NCBI GenBank assembly: GCA_964370475.1
Contig: CAYJJI010000001.1
Location: 50,363-114,362 of the forward strand
Direction: 5' to 3'
From: an uncultured Muribaculaceae bacterium
GTDB lineage: Bacteria; Bacillota_I; Bacilli_A; RF39; UBA660
DNA length: 64,000 bases
In this document: piece after piece, positions 868 to 49,448 of the stretch
Layout: each line of letters begins with the position of its first letter
How positions within the stretch are numbered: position 1 is the stretch's first letter
Notes under the pieces: generated by a model
Seen by the model: only the letters and a program-made list of their open reading frames with translations
The model's database searches: none
What the model was told of the DNA's origin: nothing
Translations under genes and position numbers: made by a program

Positions 868-1275
868 TTACCATTCTATTTCTTCGTCTATTTCTTCTTT
901 ACTACTAGCATCTTCAGTTATTTTACCTTGAACATTAACATTTTTAGGAGCACATAAATAAATACCAACTCCAATTTTTTGCATTGAACCACCTATAGAA
1001 TATATACATCCACTAAGAAAATCAATAATTCTCTTAGCTTGATCAGAAGTAACTCTCTTTAAATTAACTACAACACTATTTCTAGTCTTCAAGTGATCAG
1101 CTATTTGTTGACTTTCAGAAAATGCACGAGGTTCAAGTAAAATCATTTTATTACCAGTTCTCTCAGCTTCTTCTATAGCTTCTTCCTCAGATATAGTGTA
1201 AAATTCATCTTCAGAACCAGACATTTTTTCTTCTTCACCCATACCTAATAAATTCTTTAACTTCTTTAGTGCCAT
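868..1275 (-). CDS. sepF: Cell division protein SepF (DUF552)
   Basis: 135 aa, SepF-like core (VVVNLKRV...DFLSG.IYSIGG). AGGAGG ribosome-binding site upstream of the ATG. Confidence 0.7.
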   Translation of the reverse strand: MALKKLKNLLGMGEEEKMSGSEDEFYTISEEEAIEEAERTGNKMILLEPRAFSESQQIADHLKTRNSVVVNLKRVTSDQAKRIIDFLSGCIYSIGGSMQKIGVGIYLCAPKNVNVQGKITEDASSKEEIDEEIEW

Positions 1276-1327: not shown

Positions 1328-1593
1328 TATCAAATAGATAAAAAATTTATATTTTAAAATCTATCACTCCACATCCTTTAATTAAACTTTTCATAAGTGC
1401 CGAAATTTTTCTATCAGGGTTATAGTGTGCTTCGTGCCTATTTATTTCCACCCTAATTTCCAGTGCATTTGCAGAAAGTTTGAAATCAGGACAGCCTCTC
1501 TCATCAATTCAGCCACTTAAAGGAATATCACCTTTCATCCTCAAAGTAGAACATACTTAAAAGCATTATCTCTATAAATTCATCAAATTTTGC

Positions 1594-1765
1594 TACTGTA
1601 AAACGGAAACCACTGAGCGTGCCGAATGGACGACACCGCCAAAACCACCATTCCTGGCAAAGGTCCAAACACCAGTAACACTACCATTGTTAGAATGTCC
1701 GCCTCGCATGAACCAGGAATTGCTCGAGTTCACAAAGTTAGCGTCTTATAACAGCTGTCCACCAA
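1594..1765 (-). pseudogene. Decayed 3'-terminal fragment of an FGE-like paralog (last ~50 codons, no 5' part)
   Basis: Minus-strand translation ANFVNSSNSWFMRGGHSNNGSVTGVWTFARNGGFGGVVHSARSVVSVLQ* aligns with the C-terminus of the 2072..3850 gene (ANFVNSTYSWFNRGGSCYDDSGAGVWNF...SARSVLSFAQ*). DNA is about 70-75% identical. An in-frame TAA and a 2-nt indel lie immediately upstream. Confidence 0.55.
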
Positions 1766-2043
1766 TCATCAAACTATACACTATTTGACATATAATTTCA
1801 TTCTGAAAATTTCTACGCAGGGTTTCTTTTAATACATTTCAAAAAACCCTGCGCAGTACACCATGTTTGTACTGCACTTCGTGCTTGTTTATTCCCCTCC
1901 ATCAACTCTTGCTTCGCTAGAGTTGATGCTGTCCCGATTTTTGGAGCGTTCGCGCAAGGTGAAAAATCGGAACGGGTCATCGCCCGAAGTCTCTGCTGCT
2001 TTAGGGAGCTTTCACGTTACTTATTAAGTGAGGAACGCACTTT

Positions 2044-2070
2044 AAAAAAACGAACTACGTTCGTTTTTTT
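2044..2070. terminator. Bidirectional rho-independent terminator (A7-CGAAC-TAC-GTTCG-T7)
   Basis: aaaaaaacgaactacgttcgttttttt lies directly after the stop of the 2072..3850 gene. Confidence 0.6.
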
Positions 2071-2071
2071 G

Positions 2072-3850
2072 TTACTGCGCGAAGGAAAGCACCGAGCGTG
2101 CCGAAGAGAGGCCGTTAGGATATCCAGTGAGGCTGCTGAAATTCCAAACACCAGCACCACTGTCATCATAACAAGACCCACCTCGGTTGAACCAGGAATA
2201 AGTCGAGTTGACAAAGTTAGCTTTATCAGAGCTCCAGTTGGACATCGTAGTGCTATATGGATTTAACTCTACTGTTGCATCTCCATATATACCTCTTGTA
2301 TAATCACTAGAACTTGATCCATTAGCATATGAATCATAGTGCTTTGCATCTGGGGTAGTGGTGAAACCTGAAAGACTTGGATAGAAGTTTCCACTGCTAT
2401 CTTGCATATTCCCCATTACATATTCCCATCTTCCTCCTGCCATATCATATATACCTGTTATATTATGGGTTGTACTTGCTTTTATTCCATTTGCTGTTTC
2501 CCATCTATTACTTGCTGGACATATATTTATCCCTAATTCTGAGACATCTTGACTTGTATCAGATCCTCCACATCCAGTTACTATATCATATCCATTTGAA
2601 CTAGAATAATAATTATTGTTCTCTATTTTTACTGAACACGCTACATCATCTTCACATATTCCGTATTTAGATTGCGATAGATACGCTACCGCTCCCCACT
2701 CAGTATTTTTCATCATATGCATATCTGTGGTTGCATCCAATGAATATGCATTTTTAGTTCTTTGTATATTATAAAACATTGTACTTACATTTGCATTATG
2801 TGCTGAATTGACATTTGGTTTTATAATATAAGTAGTTTCCATGTCATTATTATTTTTTGGGTAATCTCCAGCATCTATAAAAATATTTTGCCATCCTAAC
2901 TCAAACTTCCCTACCCAAAGACCAGCTTGTTCTACACCACCAAAAGTAAATGCAGGATGAATTATTACATCATTATTTTCTATATCAGTATTAACTTTAC
3001 TAATTGGTACAAAGTTTATTTCTATTGATTCTTGTGCATTTACTATTGATGATTTTTTATATTCATATCTTGGAATCCATACATACATCTGCTCTATTGA
3101 TTCCATTGGTATTGTAGTTCCCGGATTTAGTGTTGTAAATGTTGGATCTACTATTACCGCATTCGCCCATTTTGATTCAGCATAACTATACCAAGCATCT
3201 TCATATATATCAGCAACAGTTACAACACCTGTATCTGCTATATTAACTGGTATCATTTTACTATCTAATACTGGATCACTTCCTGCTAAAACAGGATCAG
3301 TATAAGGAGGAAATGCTGCCTCAGCACTAACCGTAATCTTAGCTTGTATCTTTTTATTAGCAGCATTAGAAAGAGTTCCAGATCCATCTATCCACATTCT
3401 AAACATATGTTCATTAACTGCTCCTGGAGCTAAATTATAAGAAGATAAATTATAAGCAGTAGCTCCTTCAATAGTTGCTGTAGTAGTATTGCTTATAATA
3501 CTAGGAGTTAATCCATCAATAGAATATTTAATAAGATCATGACTTATATCAGTAATACTTAATACTTCTAAATTAACACTATATCTAGCATCAACAGTAC
3601 AAGTATTTTCTATTGAAAAGAAATAAGGAGCTTGAAACATTCCTTGATCATCAGTTAAAGGAAAAGAATTAGTTAAATTAATAGTACTACTACTATCCTC
3701 AGCAAAAACAATACTAAAACATCCCGAATCAACTAAATTTTCTCCAGATTGAGTTTCCCTTATCGACCATAATGCATACGAAAAACCAACAGCTATAGCT
3801 ACTGTTAATAATAAAGCAGTACCAATCAATATAATAAATTTAGGTTTCAT
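2072..3850 (-). CDS. Secreted modular protein, paralog 1: Sec signal peptide, unknown N-terminal module A, conserved linker B, C-terminal FGE/SUMF1-like domain
   Basis: Probable start at MKPKF (AGGAG 8 nt upstream; the ORF track has a longer alternative start). Hydrophobic segment ends ..SYA/LW. C-terminal motifs GIYDMAGGRWEYVMGN and WFNRGGSCYDDSGAGVW resemble FGE motifs GxYDMxGNVWEW and RVxRGGSW. Confidence 0.6.
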   Translation of the reverse strand: MKPKFIILIGTALLLTVAIAVGFSYALWSIRETQSGENLVDSGCFSIVFAEDSSSTINLTNSFPLTDDQGMFQAPYFFSIENTCTVDARYSVNLEVLSITDISHDLIKYSIDGLTPSIISNTTTATIEGATAYNLSSYNLAPGAVNEHMFRMWIDGSGTLSNAANKKIQAKITVSAEAAFPPYTDPVLAGSDPVLDSKMIPVNIADTGVVTVADIYEDAWYSYAESKWANAVIVDPTFTTLNPGTTIPMESIEQMYVWIPRYEYKKSSIVNAQESIEINFVPISKVNTDIENNDVIIHPAFTFGGVEQAGLWVGKFELGWQNIFIDAGDYPKNNNDMETTYIIKPNVNSAHNANVSTMFYNIQRTKNAYSLDATTDMHMMKNTEWGAVAYLSQSKYGICEDDVACSVKIENNNYYSSSNGYDIVTGCGGSDTSQDVSELGINICPASNRWETANGIKASTTHNITGIYDMAGGRWEYVMGNMQDSSGNFYPSLSGFTTTPDAKHYDSYANGSSSSDYTRGIYGDATVELNPYSTTMSNWSSDKANFVNSTYSWFNRGGSCYDDSGAGVWNFSSLTGYPNGLSSARSVLSFAQ

Positions 3851-8041: not shown

Positions 8042-9532
8042 TCAGTAAACAGCAGCTACAGATCTAGTAGCATACATTCCATAAGCTATCCCAAAATAAC
8101 TATTAAAAGCAAATACTCCCGCTTCAGTACCTAAATTAGCAGTAGAACCTCTATACATCCAATGATATTCGCCACCAACAAATCCAGCTGAATCACCATT
8201 CCAAGTTATTCTATTCGCTGGAGACATTTCAGTAGTAGCATCACCCGCAATACCTCTTGAATATTCATACATATTGGAAGAATAATTATAAGAATCATAA
8301 TACTTACTAGCAGGAACTGTAGGAAAAGCAGCATATGAATTAACAAAAGTTCCACTAGTACTCTTCATATTAGCCATTACTGCATCATATTTACCACCAG
8401 CCATATCATAAACTCCATAAACATTTCTAGTAGTAGAAGCCTTCGCCCCATTAGTAGTATTCCATCTATAAGTAGAAGGACAAATAGAAAGACCAGAAGC
8501 ATTAACTAAAACAGAAGTATCACTCCCTCCACATCCAGTAATAGTATCTAAATTAGTATTATGGTAACTATTATTCTCAACTTTTAAAGAACATGTCCCA
8601 TTGTCATTACAAACACCATACTTAGATTGAGATAAATACGCAATAGCACCCCATTCAATATTTTTAATCATATGAACATCTGTAGTTGAATCTAAACTAT
8701 AAAGTGTTTTAGCTTCTTGAACTTCCGTAAATAATCCATAATGATTTAAATTAACTACAGGAGCAACATTTGGAATATTCTTTGTATTTGCACCTTGTTC
8801 AAACTTACCTACCCAAAAACCAGATAACTTATCAGTTCCAAATGTAAAAGCAGAATGAGCAGTAGTATTTTTATCAACAAAATAAACATCAATAGCATTT
8901 GCAGAATTTACAATAGAACTAACATCATATCTAAATCTAGGAATCCATACATACATCTGTCCAACAGCACTCATAGGAATAACTGTTCCAGGAGGAGAAT
9001 TAAGATAAGATGTATTAGAAAGAACTATAGCATTCGCCCACTCACTATTCACATAATTGTACCATTCTTCTTCTAAATCAGCTACTTTGATCGTTCCATC
9101 ACTTTCTAAAACAATCGGTAACATTTTCGAATCTAAAAGTGGATCATTTCCATTCAATTCCGTTTCAATATATTTTTTAAAAAAATATATAGAACAATCA
9201 TCATTACCACTAAAAGACATATCTAAAGACCAATTTGATTGATTCCACACAGCTGTAGTAACTCCATCACAAACAAATCTATCAAAATGATAATTAGAAT
9301 TAGCAACAGGAAATTCAGTAGACTTAACACCACTAACATACACATTTAAATTAATAGGAGAATCAACTAACGAATTAATAATTACAGTATTATAATTAAC
9401 TTCAAAATACGCAAAAGAAATTCCCAAAATAGTAAATGCTATTAAAACAAGCAAAGAAAAAATTAAATGCTTTTTAGTATATTTCTTTTTATTATATTCC
9501 TTTGAAACATTAAATTGTTTCATATGAATCAC
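8042..9532 (-). CDS. Secreted modular protein, paralog 2: different N-terminal module, shared linker B, C-terminal FGE/SUMF1-like domain
   Basis: DPLLDSKMLPIV...WYNYVNSEWANAIV linker, then MYVWIPRFRYD..AFTFG..GFWVGKFE..EWGAIAYLSQSKYGVC..ITGCGGSDTS..GVYDMAGGKYDAVMANM..YRGS. Only 6 nt separate it from the pdp stop. Confidence 0.6.
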   Translation of the reverse strand: MIHMKQFNVSKEYNKKKYTKKHLIFSLLVLIAFTILGISFAYFEVNYNTVIINSLVDSPINLNVYVSGVKSTEFPVANSNYHFDRFVCDGVTTAVWNQSNWSLDMSFSGNDDCSIYFFKKYIETELNGNDPLLDSKMLPIVLESDGTIKVADLEEEWYNYVNSEWANAIVLSNTSYLNSPPGTVIPMSAVGQMYVWIPRFRYDVSSIVNSANAIDVYFVDKNTTAHSAFTFGTDKLSGFWVGKFEQGANTKNIPNVAPVVNLNHYGLFTEVQEAKTLYSLDSTTDVHMIKNIEWGAIAYLSQSKYGVCNDNGTCSLKVENNSYHNTNLDTITGCGGSDTSVLVNASGLSICPSTYRWNTTNGAKASTTRNVYGVYDMAGGKYDAVMANMKSTSGTFVNSYAAFPTVPASKYYDSYNYSSNMYEYSRGIAGDATTEMSPANRITWNGDSAGFVGGEYHWMYRGSTANLGTEAGVFAFNSYFGIAYGMYATRSVAAVY

Positions 9533-11222: not shown

Positions 11223-11937
11223 AATGATAATATACTCTATTTATAAAAGTTTTAACTTCATCATAAACCATATACTCTAAATCATTTACATTGTCACTAA
11301 AAGGATAAATATAATCTACAACACTTAACTCTTCTAAAGACCTTAAATCATTCAAATTAATATTAGTAATATAAACTAATTCACTTTTATTAAAAAACAA
11401 ATTATATCCACTTACATCAATCATAGTATCAGATTCATTTCCAACAGTAGTAGAAATTTCATAAGCATTAAAATCTTCTATCTTAGAAACATCAACACTA
11501 ACTGAATAATCATCTTTTCTAATAGATTCAAAATATTCAGTAATAATCGGTTCAACTACAACTTTCCCAGCATAACTATCTATTAAGATAGGTATATTAG
11601 AAAAAGCAATACTCTCTTCTCCAGCTAATATATTCCCACCATATACCGTCTCTGACTTTATCAAGTTTTCTTCATAATCATAATACTTAACATTAAAATC
11701 AATTGATTGATTTTTATTAGTATTATTTTCATAAATAAATACTAGTAGATCTTGTTTACTTATCAAATGATAAGTAAACAATACATCACTCTCTATAACC
11801 TCAATGTCCTCAGATTTATAATTATTAGAAACTAATACCTCCAAAGATTCATCAACACCTTTATTTATAAATAAATAAATTGATAAACTAATAAATATTA
11901 TCGACACAAAACTTAAAATCCATATAGCTATTTTCAT
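11221..11937 (-). CDS. Hypothetical membrane-anchored protein (N-terminal TM), encoded directly downstream of the large pilin
   Basis: 238 aa with an N-terminal hydrophobic segment (MKIAIWILSFVSIIFISLSIYLF), then a polar extracellular region. 18 nt from the pilin gene. Confidence 0.4.
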   Translation of the reverse strand: MKIAIWILSFVSIIFISLSIYLFINKGVDESLEVLVSNNYKSEDIEVIESDVLFTYHLISKQDLLVFIYENNTNKNQSIDFNVKYYDYEENLIKSETVYGGNILAGEESIAFSNIPILIDSYAGKVVVEPIITEYFESIRKDDYSVSVDVSKIEDFNAYEISTTVGNESDTMIDVSGYNLFFNKSELVYITNINLNDLRSLEELSVVDYIYPFSDNVNDLEYMVYDEVKTFINRVYYH

Positions 11938-11955
11938 TTTCTAACCTCCAAAAAA

Positions 11956-13491
11956 TCACTCAACTTCATAACACATACCCTCTGGACTATTTCCAAGACA
12001 TCTTTTAATTTCACATGTATGTTCACCAGTACAAACATCAAATCCCCAATCAGACCAAGGACCATTTTCTCTATAACCACTTCTTTCACAACTAAAAATA
12101 GGTTGATCTGCATTATTAATACAATAAGGATGACTTAAAACATAAAAGCTACCATTATACTGACATCTATTTCCATTATCACATACATATCCTGGTATAG
12201 GAGCTTTCGGATATACATGATGACCACTAATAAAAACAGAAGACCTAGTCCTATACTTAGTTACTATTGATAATTTAAAATAAACTTCAACAACAGTATT
12301 CTCTCTTGGCATAATAAAATTATCACTATTTAATAAAACTCCATTAACATACATTTTATCCACTTCATAATTTACATTCGGAACAAATGATAATGAAATA
12401 TTATTTCCAAATAAAGAAGAATCCTTACTTGAATATGCAACTCCACCATCACCATTAACAACACTAATGGTATATAAAGTTTTATCAACCTTACTTACAT
12501 TAAAAGGCATCTTAGCTTCATTACCTGCATTATCATAAACATATAAAACATAATCCCCATTATCTCTAGTAACAGTAATCAAACCATTATTAGAAAGAAA
12601 AACATTAATATCATTAATTCTTAATGAATTAATACCAGAGCCAACAACGCCATCATTATATTCGATATTTACTTCTCTATCCTTATTTATATACTCACTA
12701 TTATCAACATCTACTTCAATTACTGGAGGAATCTTATCAATCTTAAGTGTTCTAACTTTAGTTTTAAATCCTTCATTAGTTAAAATAGAACCATATATTG
12801 AAATAATAGAATTATCGGCACTAACTAATAACATATTAGAACAATCATCAACATTATTAATATCTACATTAGAAACATCACAAAAATTACTATCACTATA
12901 CTTTGAAGACTTATTTACTCCACCTCCAGTAAATACAATATCAGATCCTTCCTTAACGCTAAATCCATCATCAACATCTAAAACTAATAAAACGTCAGTA
13001 TTAATCCAAACAAATTCAGATAAACCACTAATTAATTCTAATTTATCACCAATAACCCCGTTAACTACCTTATAACCATCAAATTTCAACCCATCTTCAT
13101 CTTCAAGTTCATATTTAACACTACAATCATCAATTACTTCATCAGAAAAAGTAGCAACAATTTGATTCTTAGAAAAAGATATATTTATTGCATTACAACT
13201 CATATCACTACTATCAACAGGATTAATAACTTTATCACTATTAACATCATCAGAACTAATATATCCATCATATACAAGCTGTAAAACAGGTATCGTTATC
13301 GGAGCAGACAAGTTAAGTTCATCTCCCCATTTTTCAGAAGCTATTTCCAAACTTTGTATTTTATTATCTAAAGCCTTTTGCTTTCCTGAATTAGTAATAT
13401 TTATATAACTTGGAATAGCTATCAATAACAAAATACCAAGTATTACTATAGCTACTAATATTTCAACAATTGTAAATCCCTTATATTTCAT
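11956..13491 (-). CDS. Large type IV pilin-like protein (prepilin-type N-terminal cleavage/methylation domain plus ~470-aa C-terminal region with a Cys-rich end)
   Basis: MKYKG/FTIVEILVAIVILGILLLIAIPS is a classic class III signal (G at -1, E at +5). 511 aa. The last ~90 residues contain 10 Cys. Confidence 0.7.
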   Translation of the reverse strand: MKYKGFTIVEILVAIVILGILLLIAIPSYINITNSGKQKALDNKIQSLEIASEKWGDELNLSAPITIPVLQLVYDGYISSDDVNSDKVINPVDSSDMSCNAINISFSKNQIVATFSDEVIDDCSVKYELEDEDGLKFDGYKVVNGVIGDKLELISGLSEFVWINTDVLLVLDVDDGFSVKEGSDIVFTGGGVNKSSKYSDSNFCDVSNVDINNVDDCSNMLLVSADNSIISIYGSILTNEGFKTKVRTLKIDKIPPVIEVDVDNSEYINKDREVNIEYNDGVVGSGINSLRINDINVFLSNNGLITVTRDNGDYVLYVYDNAGNEAKMPFNVSKVDKTLYTISVVNGDGGVAYSSKDSSLFGNNISLSFVPNVNYEVDKMYVNGVLLNSDNFIMPRENTVVEVYFKLSIVTKYRTRSSVFISGHHVYPKAPIPGYVCDNGNRCQYNGSFYVLSHPYCINNADQPIFSCERSGYRENGPWSDWGFDVCTGEHTCEIKRCLGNSPEGMCYEVE

Positions 13492-20732: not shown

Positions 20733-22262
20733 CTACATATTAATTGTACCATACATTCCATACATTGGCATTACAACCGCCATCAAAATAGCTCCAACAA
20801 CTACTGCCAAACCAGCAATCATAACCGGTTCTATAATAGCTTTAAAACTAGTAACTATCGACTTATGTTGTATTTGAAAATGCTCACTAACTTTTTCCAT
20901 CATTGAAGCAAGTTCTCCAGTCGATTCCCCAGTAACAATCATGAAATAAGCTGCACTAGGAATAGCCCAGTGATCTTTAAAAGTTTCAGATATCTTACCA
21001 CCAGTAGATATATTATTAATAGTTTCAAACATAATTTCTTTATAAACTTCATTAGAAGTTATCCTACTTAAAATATCCATACTATCAGTAATATAAACAC
21101 TATTCTTTAACAATGACGAAAACGTCTTAGTAAAAATAGTTATCTCATTAAATATTATTAAATCCTTAATTACAGGAATCTTCATTACCATTATTTGCAT
21201 TGCTTTTCTAAAAGCTTTAACTTTCTTATAAGAAAACACAAATACTAAAACAACTAAAATAGTAACAGCTATATATATTAAGTAATTAGCTTGCAAATTT
21301 TCCGATAAATTTAATACTAACAATGTAATCCCAGTAACAGGAGCACCCATTGATTCATAAATACCTTCAAACTCTGGCATTATAAATAACATTATAAATA
21401 TAACAATACCTACAGCAAATACACTTATTATCGCCGGATAAGTCATAGCACTAATCATATCTTTTTTAGTTTTATCAATCTCAGAATAATAATTAGCCAT
21501 ATCATCTAAAGTAGATTGTAAATCTCCAGTAGCTTCAGCTGCTTTTAACATATTAATTAATAAACTAGGAAACATTCCACCTTGCTTAGTTAAAGCATTA
21601 GAAAAACTCTCTCCCATAGTAAGTTCATAAACGATAGCATTAAAAATACTTTTTCTCGCAGTATCTTTACCAGTTTGTTGAGCTAAAATTCTCATAGAGT
21701 CAGTTAATGGTATACCACTTCTTACATAAGTAGATAATTGTGTTAACCAAAAAATTAAATCTTTACTTTTCATCTTACGAGGAAATAAACCACTTTCGCC
21801 ATAAACAAAATTAATCCAATCACTAGTTTCAATACTAAAAACTTCATAACCTTCATTAACTAAAAAAGTATTAACATCTAACTTAGACATCCCAGTAAAA
21901 TTATCAGTAACAAGTTTACCTTTATAATCAAGTGCAGTATATCTAAATATTGTTGGTTTAGTTAATCTCTTAGCATCTTCACCAGTTAACTCAGCATTAA
22001 GCTTAGCTTTCTTCTCTTCTAACTTAGCAAGTACTCTAGGACTAATTTTAGTCTTACGATCTACCACAGCTTCTTTTTTTTCAGTTTTTATTATGTTCTT
22101 AGTACCTTTATAAGTTTTATCAACTGCACTAGAAGAAACATAATATAATTTAGCTAAAGGAGAAAATAAAACTTTTAATCCTAGAAAAGCATATCTAAAT
22201 ATATCAAAAAAACTTAATATAAAATTAATTGGCATAAACAATACATTACTCTTCTTAGCCAT
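20733..22262 (-). CDS. pilC: Type IV pilus / type II secretion platform protein (GspF/PilC family) with ~120-aa N-terminal extension
   Basis: Two T2SSF-like repeats. Characteristic YTALDYKGKLVTDNFTGMSKLDVNTFLVNEGYEVFSIE N-domain. 509 aa. Confidence 0.7.
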   Translation of the reverse strand: MAKKSNVLFMPINFILSFFDIFRYAFLGLKVLFSPLAKLYYVSSSAVDKTYKGTKNIIKTEKKEAVVDRKTKISPRVLAKLEEKKAKLNAELTGEDAKRLTKPTIFRYTALDYKGKLVTDNFTGMSKLDVNTFLVNEGYEVFSIETSDWINFVYGESGLFPRKMKSKDLIFWLTQLSTYVRSGIPLTDSMRILAQQTGKDTARKSIFNAIVYELTMGESFSNALTKQGGMFPSLLINMLKAAEATGDLQSTLDDMANYYSEIDKTKKDMISAMTYPAIISVFAVGIVIFIMLFIMPEFEGIYESMGAPVTGITLLVLNLSENLQANYLIYIAVTILVVLVFVFSYKKVKAFRKAMQIMVMKIPVIKDLIIFNEITIFTKTFSSLLKNSVYITDSMDILSRITSNEVYKEIMFETINNISTGGKISETFKDHWAIPSAAYFMIVTGESTGELASMMEKVSEHFQIQHKSIVTSFKAIIEPVMIAGLAVVVGAILMAVVMPMYGMYGTINM

Positions 22263-49345: not shown

Positions 49346-49448
49346 TTTATACCTCCTTTATAATTTTTTGAAGACTCGCCTTAAAGGTGACTTACGTACT
49401 TAAACCTTTTTAGTGCGGTTTTAAAGAAAAGCCCTTAAAACATTAAAA

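Follow-up and report, generated by a model that had tools for sequence, protein, structure and literature searches.

We analyzed a 64-kb stretch of contig CAYJJI010000001.1 (64,000 nucleotides, hereafter the window) and the interval that follows the gene of a membrane-anchored surface protein, paralog 1 (P1), in it. This interval contains a real, gene-less, in-frame copy of a variable region of the type that belongs to diversity-generating retroelements (DGRs), together with a second copy of the element found downstream of P1. The copy, hereafter the fragment, occupies positions 1593–1745 of the minus strand; it consists of 50 codons and a TAG stop codon (1593–1595), is homologous to the variable region (VR) of P1 and has no gene body. 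The locus is composed of two tandem modules, each with a gene tail and a downstream element, and the distal module is without a gene body. We favor, at slightly less than an even chance, an account of the fragment as a donor-like DGR repeat that has been orphaned. In this account, it is an untranslated copy of the VR cassette of P1, uncoupled from P1 and now probably vestigial. It is located where related loci have their template repeat (TR), and its boundaries are TR-like.

The fragment was compared with the P1 tail by alignment and by shuffling. Positions 1588–1742 of the minus strand align with 2067–2221 of P1 without gaps at an offset of exactly 479 nt, and 106 of the 155 nucleotides are identical (68%), with 77% identity over the best 79 nt. 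The initial annotation had estimated about 70–75%; the similarity is real. The local alignment score is 69, compared with 16.5 ± 2.2 in 500 dinucleotide shuffles (z = 23.7, 0/500), and the similarity is not of the low-complexity kind; neither of the two artifacts to which the initial annotation was exposed accounts for the match. As protein, 25 residues are identical over 49–50 amino acids (tblastn E = 1.4e-7). The frame of the fragment is open over 50 codons with no indel and no internal stop, and its stop codon is aligned with that of P1. Homology to P1 ends at an Asp codon (1743–1745), and a TAA (1746–1748) stands immediately 5' of it; no similarity was detected beyond this edge (1743–1790 against 2222–2300 of P1, z = −0.5). 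The loss of homology matters because these genes are better conserved in the gene body just 5' of the tail. A gene-tail copy on the minus strand at 1594–1765, an in-frame stop at its 5' edge and the lack of an upstream gene part had all been predicted, and they are borne out once the extent is corrected to 1593–1745, but the frameshift predicted at the same edge is not, given the z-score there. P1 alone among the paralogs matches the fragment at the DNA level. The tails of P2 (8042–9532) and P3 (22350–24041) match it weakly as protein (16–17 identical residues), and DNA similarity to the fragment was found in none of P2, P3 and P4. The proposed search for other 3' fragments of the family returned no further tail fragment in the 64-kb window.

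P1 is encoded at 2072–3850 of the minus strand. Its longest open reading frame (ORF) extends to 3886, and the likely ATG start is at 3850. A 592-aa database protein is 100% identical to P1, and the database holds a single P1 copy. The AlphaFold model of P1 (pLDDT 87) has a C-terminal FGE/C-type-lectin-like domain, and its top match in the PDB is TaqVP (5VF4), a DGR variable protein of Thermus aquaticus (E = 2.8e-9). The FGE-sulfatase family (PF03781) is matched by 6 of 29 P1 homologues, while Pfam gives no match for P1 itself. On the basis of the predicted fold, P1 is a DGR-type variable protein with a C-type-lectin/FGE-like fold that carries a VR. P4 (29347–30738, minus strand) has only the N-terminal ~200 residues in common with P1 (38% identity), and BspA-type leucine-rich repeats (LRR_5, E = 6e-43) are placed where the lectin-fold domain would stand. 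The presence of LRR_5 instead of the lectin fold indicates that the anchor and stalk are modular and that the heads are exchangeable.

The VR-like tail of P1 (2075–2224, minus strand) is hypervariable, adenine-poor and GC-rich, as judged from its composition and from comparison of the paralogs. In P1-type genes from the window and from the closest metagenome-assembled genome (MAG), GCA_964368665.1, the 440 nt before the tail are 72–87% identical, whereas the last 160 nt are 53–78% identical; the tail varies more than any other part of the gene and is therefore a hypervariable region. The contigs of GCA_964368665.1 (L002–L007, L046 and L064–L066 in our numbering of loci) are low in GC and carry Bacilli-type genes. 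Many of them stop about 70–130 nt past a P1-type gene or its element, which suggests that the assembly breaks at repeated or variable sequence.

To place the fragment among its relatives, 55 fetched loci encoding P1 relatives were compared with the window. In this set, tail copies without a gene body upstream occur only in L028 (six copies), L029 (one) and the window (one). L029 is a textbook DGR. Its VR (8664–8815) and orphan copy (9263–9417) are 87% identical, and 18 of their 20 mismatches lie at adenines of the TR, which served as a positive control. L028 (11006–15255 of CAKPMN010000013.1, a gut Bacilli MAG) is a complete DGR with six tandem template units at 11383–13219. The units have a period of about 340 nt. 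Every unit is equipped with a TGTTAAAAT promoter of its own, contains an in-frame stop and includes a terminator and a conserved spacer. The VR of L028 (11006–11148) is best read as derived from two templates, template 2 for the 5' part (to about 11081) and template 3 for the 3' part; this mosaic, a second positive control, has 9 adenine mismatches and 1 non-adenine mismatch, whereas any single template leaves at least 8 non-adenine mismatches. Templates 1 and 4 of L028 are poor in adenine and in Asn codons, and have VR-like content within template-type flanks. In both loci, genes for a MutS_I protein, bAvd and an RVT_1 reverse transcriptase (RT) lie directly 3' of the templates. The orphan tail copies of these two gut-Bacilli loci, L028 and L029, are bona fide TRs. 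The initial annotation had not recognised that this is a DGR target family whose orphan copies in relatives are TRs.

The geometry of the fragment is similar to that of these TRs. The fragment begins with the conserved Asp codon at which the TR/VR homology of L028 and L029 starts. The start-to-start distance from the VR to the copy is 479 nt in the window, 599 nt in L029 and about 380 nt in L028 (first TR), always on the same strand, and the orphan copies of L028 and L029 lie 0.2–0.45 kb past the stop codon of the gene. Targets can also be separated from their retroelement. L030 (9995–11533) contains the same target gene and 290-nt downstream flank as L029 (7565–9108; 87% identical) in another genomic context, and neither a TR nor an RT was found within 5.5 kb downstream of it; 17 of the 23 differences between the VR of L030 and the TR of L029 are at adenines.

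Two further observations were made on the relatives. A small ORF with MutS domain I (PF01624) stands between the template and bAvd in L029 (9683–9934, E = 1e-8) and in L028 (13444–13857, E = 1.6e-10); the encoded protein may be accessory to this clade of DGRs. The MAG BRZ_AH__bin14 (L013, L018, L019, L025 and L045) has at least five paralogs in one genome, which are 93–95% identical before the tail, 78–89% in a gapless 160-nt tail and 82–97% over 150–185 nt downstream, with a strong hairpin overlapping the stop codon. This genome looks like a multi-target DGR; the RT and the template are absent from the fetched flanks.

The composition of the fragment is shared with the P1 tail. The P1 tail has 18% A and 51% GC, compared with 38% A and 36% GC just upstream, and the fragment (18% A, 50% GC) is also similar in composition to the VR and TR repeats of L028 and L029. 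The tails of P2 and P3 and all gene bodies have the composition of the rest of the genome. At the third codon position, the P1 tail has 8% A and 34% C (p = 1.4e-6) and the fragment 10% A and 30% C (p = 8e-6), whereas the P1 body has 38% A and 4% C. Within the window, adenine-poor, C-rich synonymous usage is confined to the fragment and the P1 tail and is not seen in P2, P3 or the P1 body. Such a third-position composition cannot persist for long in an AT-biased genome unless it is maintained. The encoded residues were examined at the scaffold, defined as the 20 codons whose amino acid is invariant across four functional P1-type tails. The fragment retains 20 of 20 scaffold residues, with 6–7 synonymous and 0 non-synonymous differences. 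Because neutral decay would have produced many replacements, the fragment carries a signature of purifying selection. It would have evolved for most of its history with selection acting on what it encodes, and its orphaning would thus be fairly recent. With no indel, no internal stop, an intact scaffold and a foreign codon usage (third-position C of 30% against 4%), the fragment does not deserve the description as decayed that it had been given.

The signals around the stop codons were also compared. A hairpin directly follows the P1 stop codon (2044–2070), which was detected as an inverted repeat with a DNA fold of −10.3 kcal/mol (z = −3.35). Strong hairpins right after the stop are present in P1, L005, L046, the VR of L029 and the VR of L018; the hairpin of L064 is weak (−4.5 kcal/mol, z = −1.85), and neither the stop of the fragment (−2.6 kcal/mol, z = −0.9) nor the TR of L029 is followed by one. 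Target recognition in phage BPP-1 involves a hairpin just 3' of the VR and does not require sequence 5' of the VR (PMC3240598). The P1 hairpin also reads as a plain terminator-like stem; from its position and sequence, it could be either a terminator or the positional equivalent of the DGR target hairpin/cruciform. A promoter-like site, ATGAAA-17-TATAGT, lies about 25 nt 5' of the fragment on the minus strand (1773–1801) and has 9 of 12 consensus matches.

The proposal of an orphaned, donor-like repeat draws on the variable-protein fold of P1, the TR nature of the orphan copies elsewhere, the shared Asp start codon, the codon usage, the retention of the scaffold, the missing post-stop hairpin (like the L029 TR and unlike VR ends), the promoter-like site upstream and the existence in the family of targets without a nearby RT or TR, such as L030. 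DGR-less remnants have been described in Treponema (PMC4891356). In intact DGRs, as shown by L028, L029 and the DGR literature, the orphan copy has a promoter of its own, from which it is transcribed, and the RT–bAvd complex reverse-transcribes the product and misreads adenines. The complementary DNA then replaces the VR in the 3'-terminal part of the target gene; guidance comes from the 3' end of the VR and from a hairpin just beyond it. In the window, the RT/Avd machinery would have been lost or would be located elsewhere, and what remains would be P1 with a VR-type tail, a structured element, one donor-like repeat and a degraded second copy of the element.

Several results weigh against this proposal. 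Homologues of RT, bAvd and MutS_I are absent from the 64-kb window, as searched by tblastn with the L028 and L029 proteins, and no RT-like ORF bearing YxDD was found in it. The 49 mismatches between the fragment and P1 are not adenine-specific (11 at A, 16 at G, 12 at T and 10 at C of the fragment) and are even across codon positions. A cognate VR was not found; no protein among 5.8 billion database sequences, which include P1, P2 and P3 of the window, has three 5-mers of the fragment peptide. The 3' junction of the fragment (CAG TAG CAAAA) and the next ~150 nt are of the VR/gene-end type (P1, L005, L046, L064 and L065), whereas the TRs of L028 and L029 run into a GACTAT... junction. The A content (18%) and the number of Asn codons (6) are nearer to those of VRs than to those of active TRs. 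Promoter-like sites in the region are not more numerous than in shuffles, and the site upstream of the fragment is therefore weak evidence. The synonymous divergence (dS) between the fragment and P1 is about 0.62. If the fragment had been P1's own TR, decaying since the RT was lost, this dS would predict about 8 scaffold replacements, and 0 were seen; hence, the P1 tail is not simply the drifted partner of the fragment.

These data also set limits on the relation between the two sequences. P1 and the fragment do not form a TR/VR pair, and the fragment cannot be P1's own template that has drifted since an old loss of the RT. Its role as the active TR of P1 is ruled out by the mismatch spectrum. 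The Asn codons of the fragment cluster in its 5' half (5 of 8 variable positions, compared with 1 of 13 in the 3' half); a recombinant with a TR-type 5' half that partners P1 and a VR-type 3' half was also considered and rejected, as the mismatches in the 5' half are mostly non-adenine.

The downstream element is central to a different explanation. Element 1 (1768–2074, minus strand) is a ~270-nt, structured, GC-elevated element that follows P1-type tails and was delimited by conservation and folding. It folds with −91 kcal/mol (z = −5.8) and is equally stable on both strands, so that the fold does not tell the strand; internal hairpins are at 1900–1928, 1851–1877 and 1813–1856, and a few compensatory changes are present. 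The element also stands behind five paralogs of GCA_964368665.1 (L005:3196–3468, L006:6617–6873, L046:427–575, L064:2596–2679 and L065:2256–2392). Its conservation is 72–87% (about 90% in the first 55 nt), roughly that of the gene bodies. An nhmmer search over the fetched loci located it only behind gene tails, namely those of six genes and no TR, in two genomes only. Rfam 15 gave nothing at the gathering score and chance-level matches at E<=5. A metagenome pattern scan beyond the two genomes gave 7 matches, all due to chance (high-GC soil contigs); among viruses, neither a viral pattern scan nor blastn against phage genomes gave a match. No homology was detectable to the VR–TR spacers or the TR-downstream spacers of L028 and L029. 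Conserved flanks of 150–290 nt 3' of VRs are also present in two other lineages of the family. The element may be a 3'-untranslated-region/terminator module or part of DGR target recognition.

Element 2 (1415–1562, minus strand) is a diverged and truncated copy of element 1. It matches positions 29–178 of the 272-position element profile (nhmmer E = 1.2e-8), for which P1 and four paralogs from the related MAG were used and the 1415–1562 region was left out, and its alignment with the L005 element has a z-score of 8.0. A likeness of 30 nt between 1426–1456 and 1878–1908 had been noticed in the initial annotation; by itself it is weak (z = 2.6, 10/500), and it is the core of this collinear copy. 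The further claim that the tail of the gene occurs, together with its downstream region, as two tandem copies is confirmed. Element 2 matches 64–70% of the columns that are invariant in the other copies, compared with 76–96% for those copies themselves, and of the nucleotide columns invariant in functional copies, the tail in the fragment matches 90% and element 2 only 68%.

The fragment and element 2 may instead be the remnant of a target-type module, either the 3' end of a tandem paralog whose body was deleted or the former tail of P1, displaced when a tail-plus-element module recombined in. They would then be a recombination or deletion scar with no present function. We regard a displaced or deleted paralog tail as a serious rival, although on balance a rather unlikely one. 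The homology runs past the stop (CAG TAG CAAAA, as in L046, L064 and L065) through about 150 nt of an element that is otherwise restricted to gene tails, the A and Asn content is VR-like, and tandem paralogs are common in the family (L004, L009, L017, L024, L034 and L039). A recent end of coding status would account for the purifying-selection signature and the intact frame, and neither the RT nor a cognate VR has been found. However, the 5' end of the fragment lies no more than about 3 nt from the point where TR/VR homology is bounded in two independent DGRs; for a random deletion endpoint in a 1.8-kb gene, the chance of this is roughly 1%. There is no trace just upstream of the better-conserved gene body (72–87% between paralogs), the hairpin that follows VR-type stops is missing, and no such remnant follows any of the five element-bearing paralogs of the related MAG where sequence exists.

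The orphaned-repeat proposal treats the fragment as vestigial. If it were still in use, it would be a live alternative template of a split or multi-template DGR, with the RT/Avd genes and perhaps more templates outside the window, and the VR of P1 would have been last written from another template. We consider this improbable. In the active DGR of L028, templates coexist with a current VR to which they are just 73% identical and from which they differ at many non-adenine positions, and this VR is a mosaic of two of the six templates. Remote targets exist in the family, the scaffold residues are conserved in the fragment, and DGR codon usage has been kept in both the P1 tail and the fragment despite a dS of about 0.5–0.6 and a strongly AT-biased genome. 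On the other hand, there is no RT across 62 kb on one side and no VR in the database that matches the fragment, a mutable adenine is present in only about 13 of 21 variable codons, and the 3' flank is VR-type. In L028 and L029, the TR adjoins its RT; to our knowledge, the TR lies next to its RT in surveyed DGRs generally. If the fragment were a live donor, the P1 tail would be rewritten by adenine mutagenesis together with choice or mosaic use of stored templates, as L028 suggests for the clade, and the ~270-nt structured element would be part of the recognition or priming apparatus.

A silent cassette for RecA-type gene conversion or deletion switching, similar to pilS or vls, has only a slight chance of being correct. 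In this case, either P1 would receive the central segment of the fragment, or recombination between the direct repeats would delete 479 nt and join the fragment in frame to the body of P1. Because the direct repeats keep register, homologous deletion would yield an in-frame alternative tail, and the encoded sequence is conserved. However, only one cassette is present, and both the longest identical run with P1 (12 nt) and the identity of the flanks (28/32 and 19/22) fall far short of the requirements of efficient homologous recombination. A deletion switch could not be reversed, and there is no DNA similarity to P2, P3 or P4. RecA-type antigenic variation is therefore unlikely, and gene conversion among the four paralogs, which had been suggested from the fragment, is not supported for the same reasons: P2 and P3 lack DNA similarity, the longest run shared with P1 is 12 nt, and there is one cassette rather than an array.

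The genome of the window is low in GC (about 25–30%) and Bacilli-like, and nearly all genes are on the minus strand. An 800-nt interval without genes separates P1 from sepF (868–1275, minus strand; Pfam SepF, E = 6e-27), which is the first gene beyond the fragment; the genes adjoining the fragment are sepF and divIVA. A promoter scan placed a promoter-like site of sepF at 1327->1299. A tandem duplication that extends into the promoter/ribosome-binding site of sepF, considered for two promoter-like sites 474 nt apart, was rejected (z = −0.5 and −1.2). A ribosomal protein L21 leader (RF00559, 45.7 bits; 49362–49430, minus strand) is the sole Rfam match in the window and fits an origin in Bacillota. 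A protein with a prepilin-type N-terminal methylation motif and a T2SS-F platform gene are encoded among the paralogs at 11956–13491 and 20733–22262 (minus strand). Several P1 homologues, for example the L029 target, have pilin-like N-termini, which hint at an association of the variable proteins with pili. The syntenic counterpart of the P1–sepF–divIVA order is in L039 (9128–13865). It encodes a 712-aa homologue with a very adenine-poor tail (11% A) and the end 'TAG ACTAT', as in the L028 template units, and an AAA_21 ATPase gene lies between this homologue and sepF. A stretch of 51 nt (L039:11639–11689) has 82% identity to the promoter region 5' of the L029 accessory genes.

With these results, what looked like an anonymous gene scar becomes a marker for the DGR biology of little-studied, low-GC gut Bacilli, in which P1 and its relatives are adhesin-like surface proteins of the DGR type. 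The locus would show what remains after the template/RT side has been lost or separated, namely a target with its recognition-side flank and a donor-like repeat with adenine-avoiding codons. Should an RT acting in trans still use the repeat, the locus would exemplify a template stored apart from its RT. In either case, degenerate or split DGRs that RT-centered pipelines overlook can be searched for through orphan VR-like repeats that have the codon usage of DGRs.

Orphan C-terminal modules of contact-dependent inhibition (CDI; cdiA-CT) and Rhs systems are similar to the fragment in that a 3' fragment, starting at the border of the variable region, lies past a full-length gene with its own downstream partner sequence. 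The fragment differs from them in having neither a toxin/immunity pair nor a long conserved recombination motif, and it corresponds to a ligand-binding lectin-fold domain. The silent cassettes of Neisseria pilS and Borrelia vls are also untranslated partial copies of a variable region near an expressed surface gene, but the fragment is a single copy with flanking identity too short for efficient recombination and with no evidence of exchange. The closer comparison is with the TR of a DGR (the BPP-1 prototype, L028 and L029). Like a TR, the fragment is a non-coding duplicate of the final ~150 nt of a gene for a variable protein with a C-type-lectin/FGE fold; it lies on the same strand a few hundred nucleotides past the gene, has the same start codon as the L028 and L029 TRs, is adenine-poor in codon usage, and has a promoter-like site before it and no hairpin after it. 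In contrast to a TR, it has no RT, bAvd or MutS_I gene in the window, its differences from the VR are not confined to adenines, its 3' junction and downstream sequence are target-like rather than a TR spacer, and its 3' half has few Asn (AAY) codons. With its VR-like tail, conserved downstream hairpin/element and lack of an adjacent RT, P1 also resembles targets and remnants without RT and TR, as in Treponema denticola isolates (PMC4891356) and in L030. Unlike these, the window retains an extra gene-less repeat beside its target.

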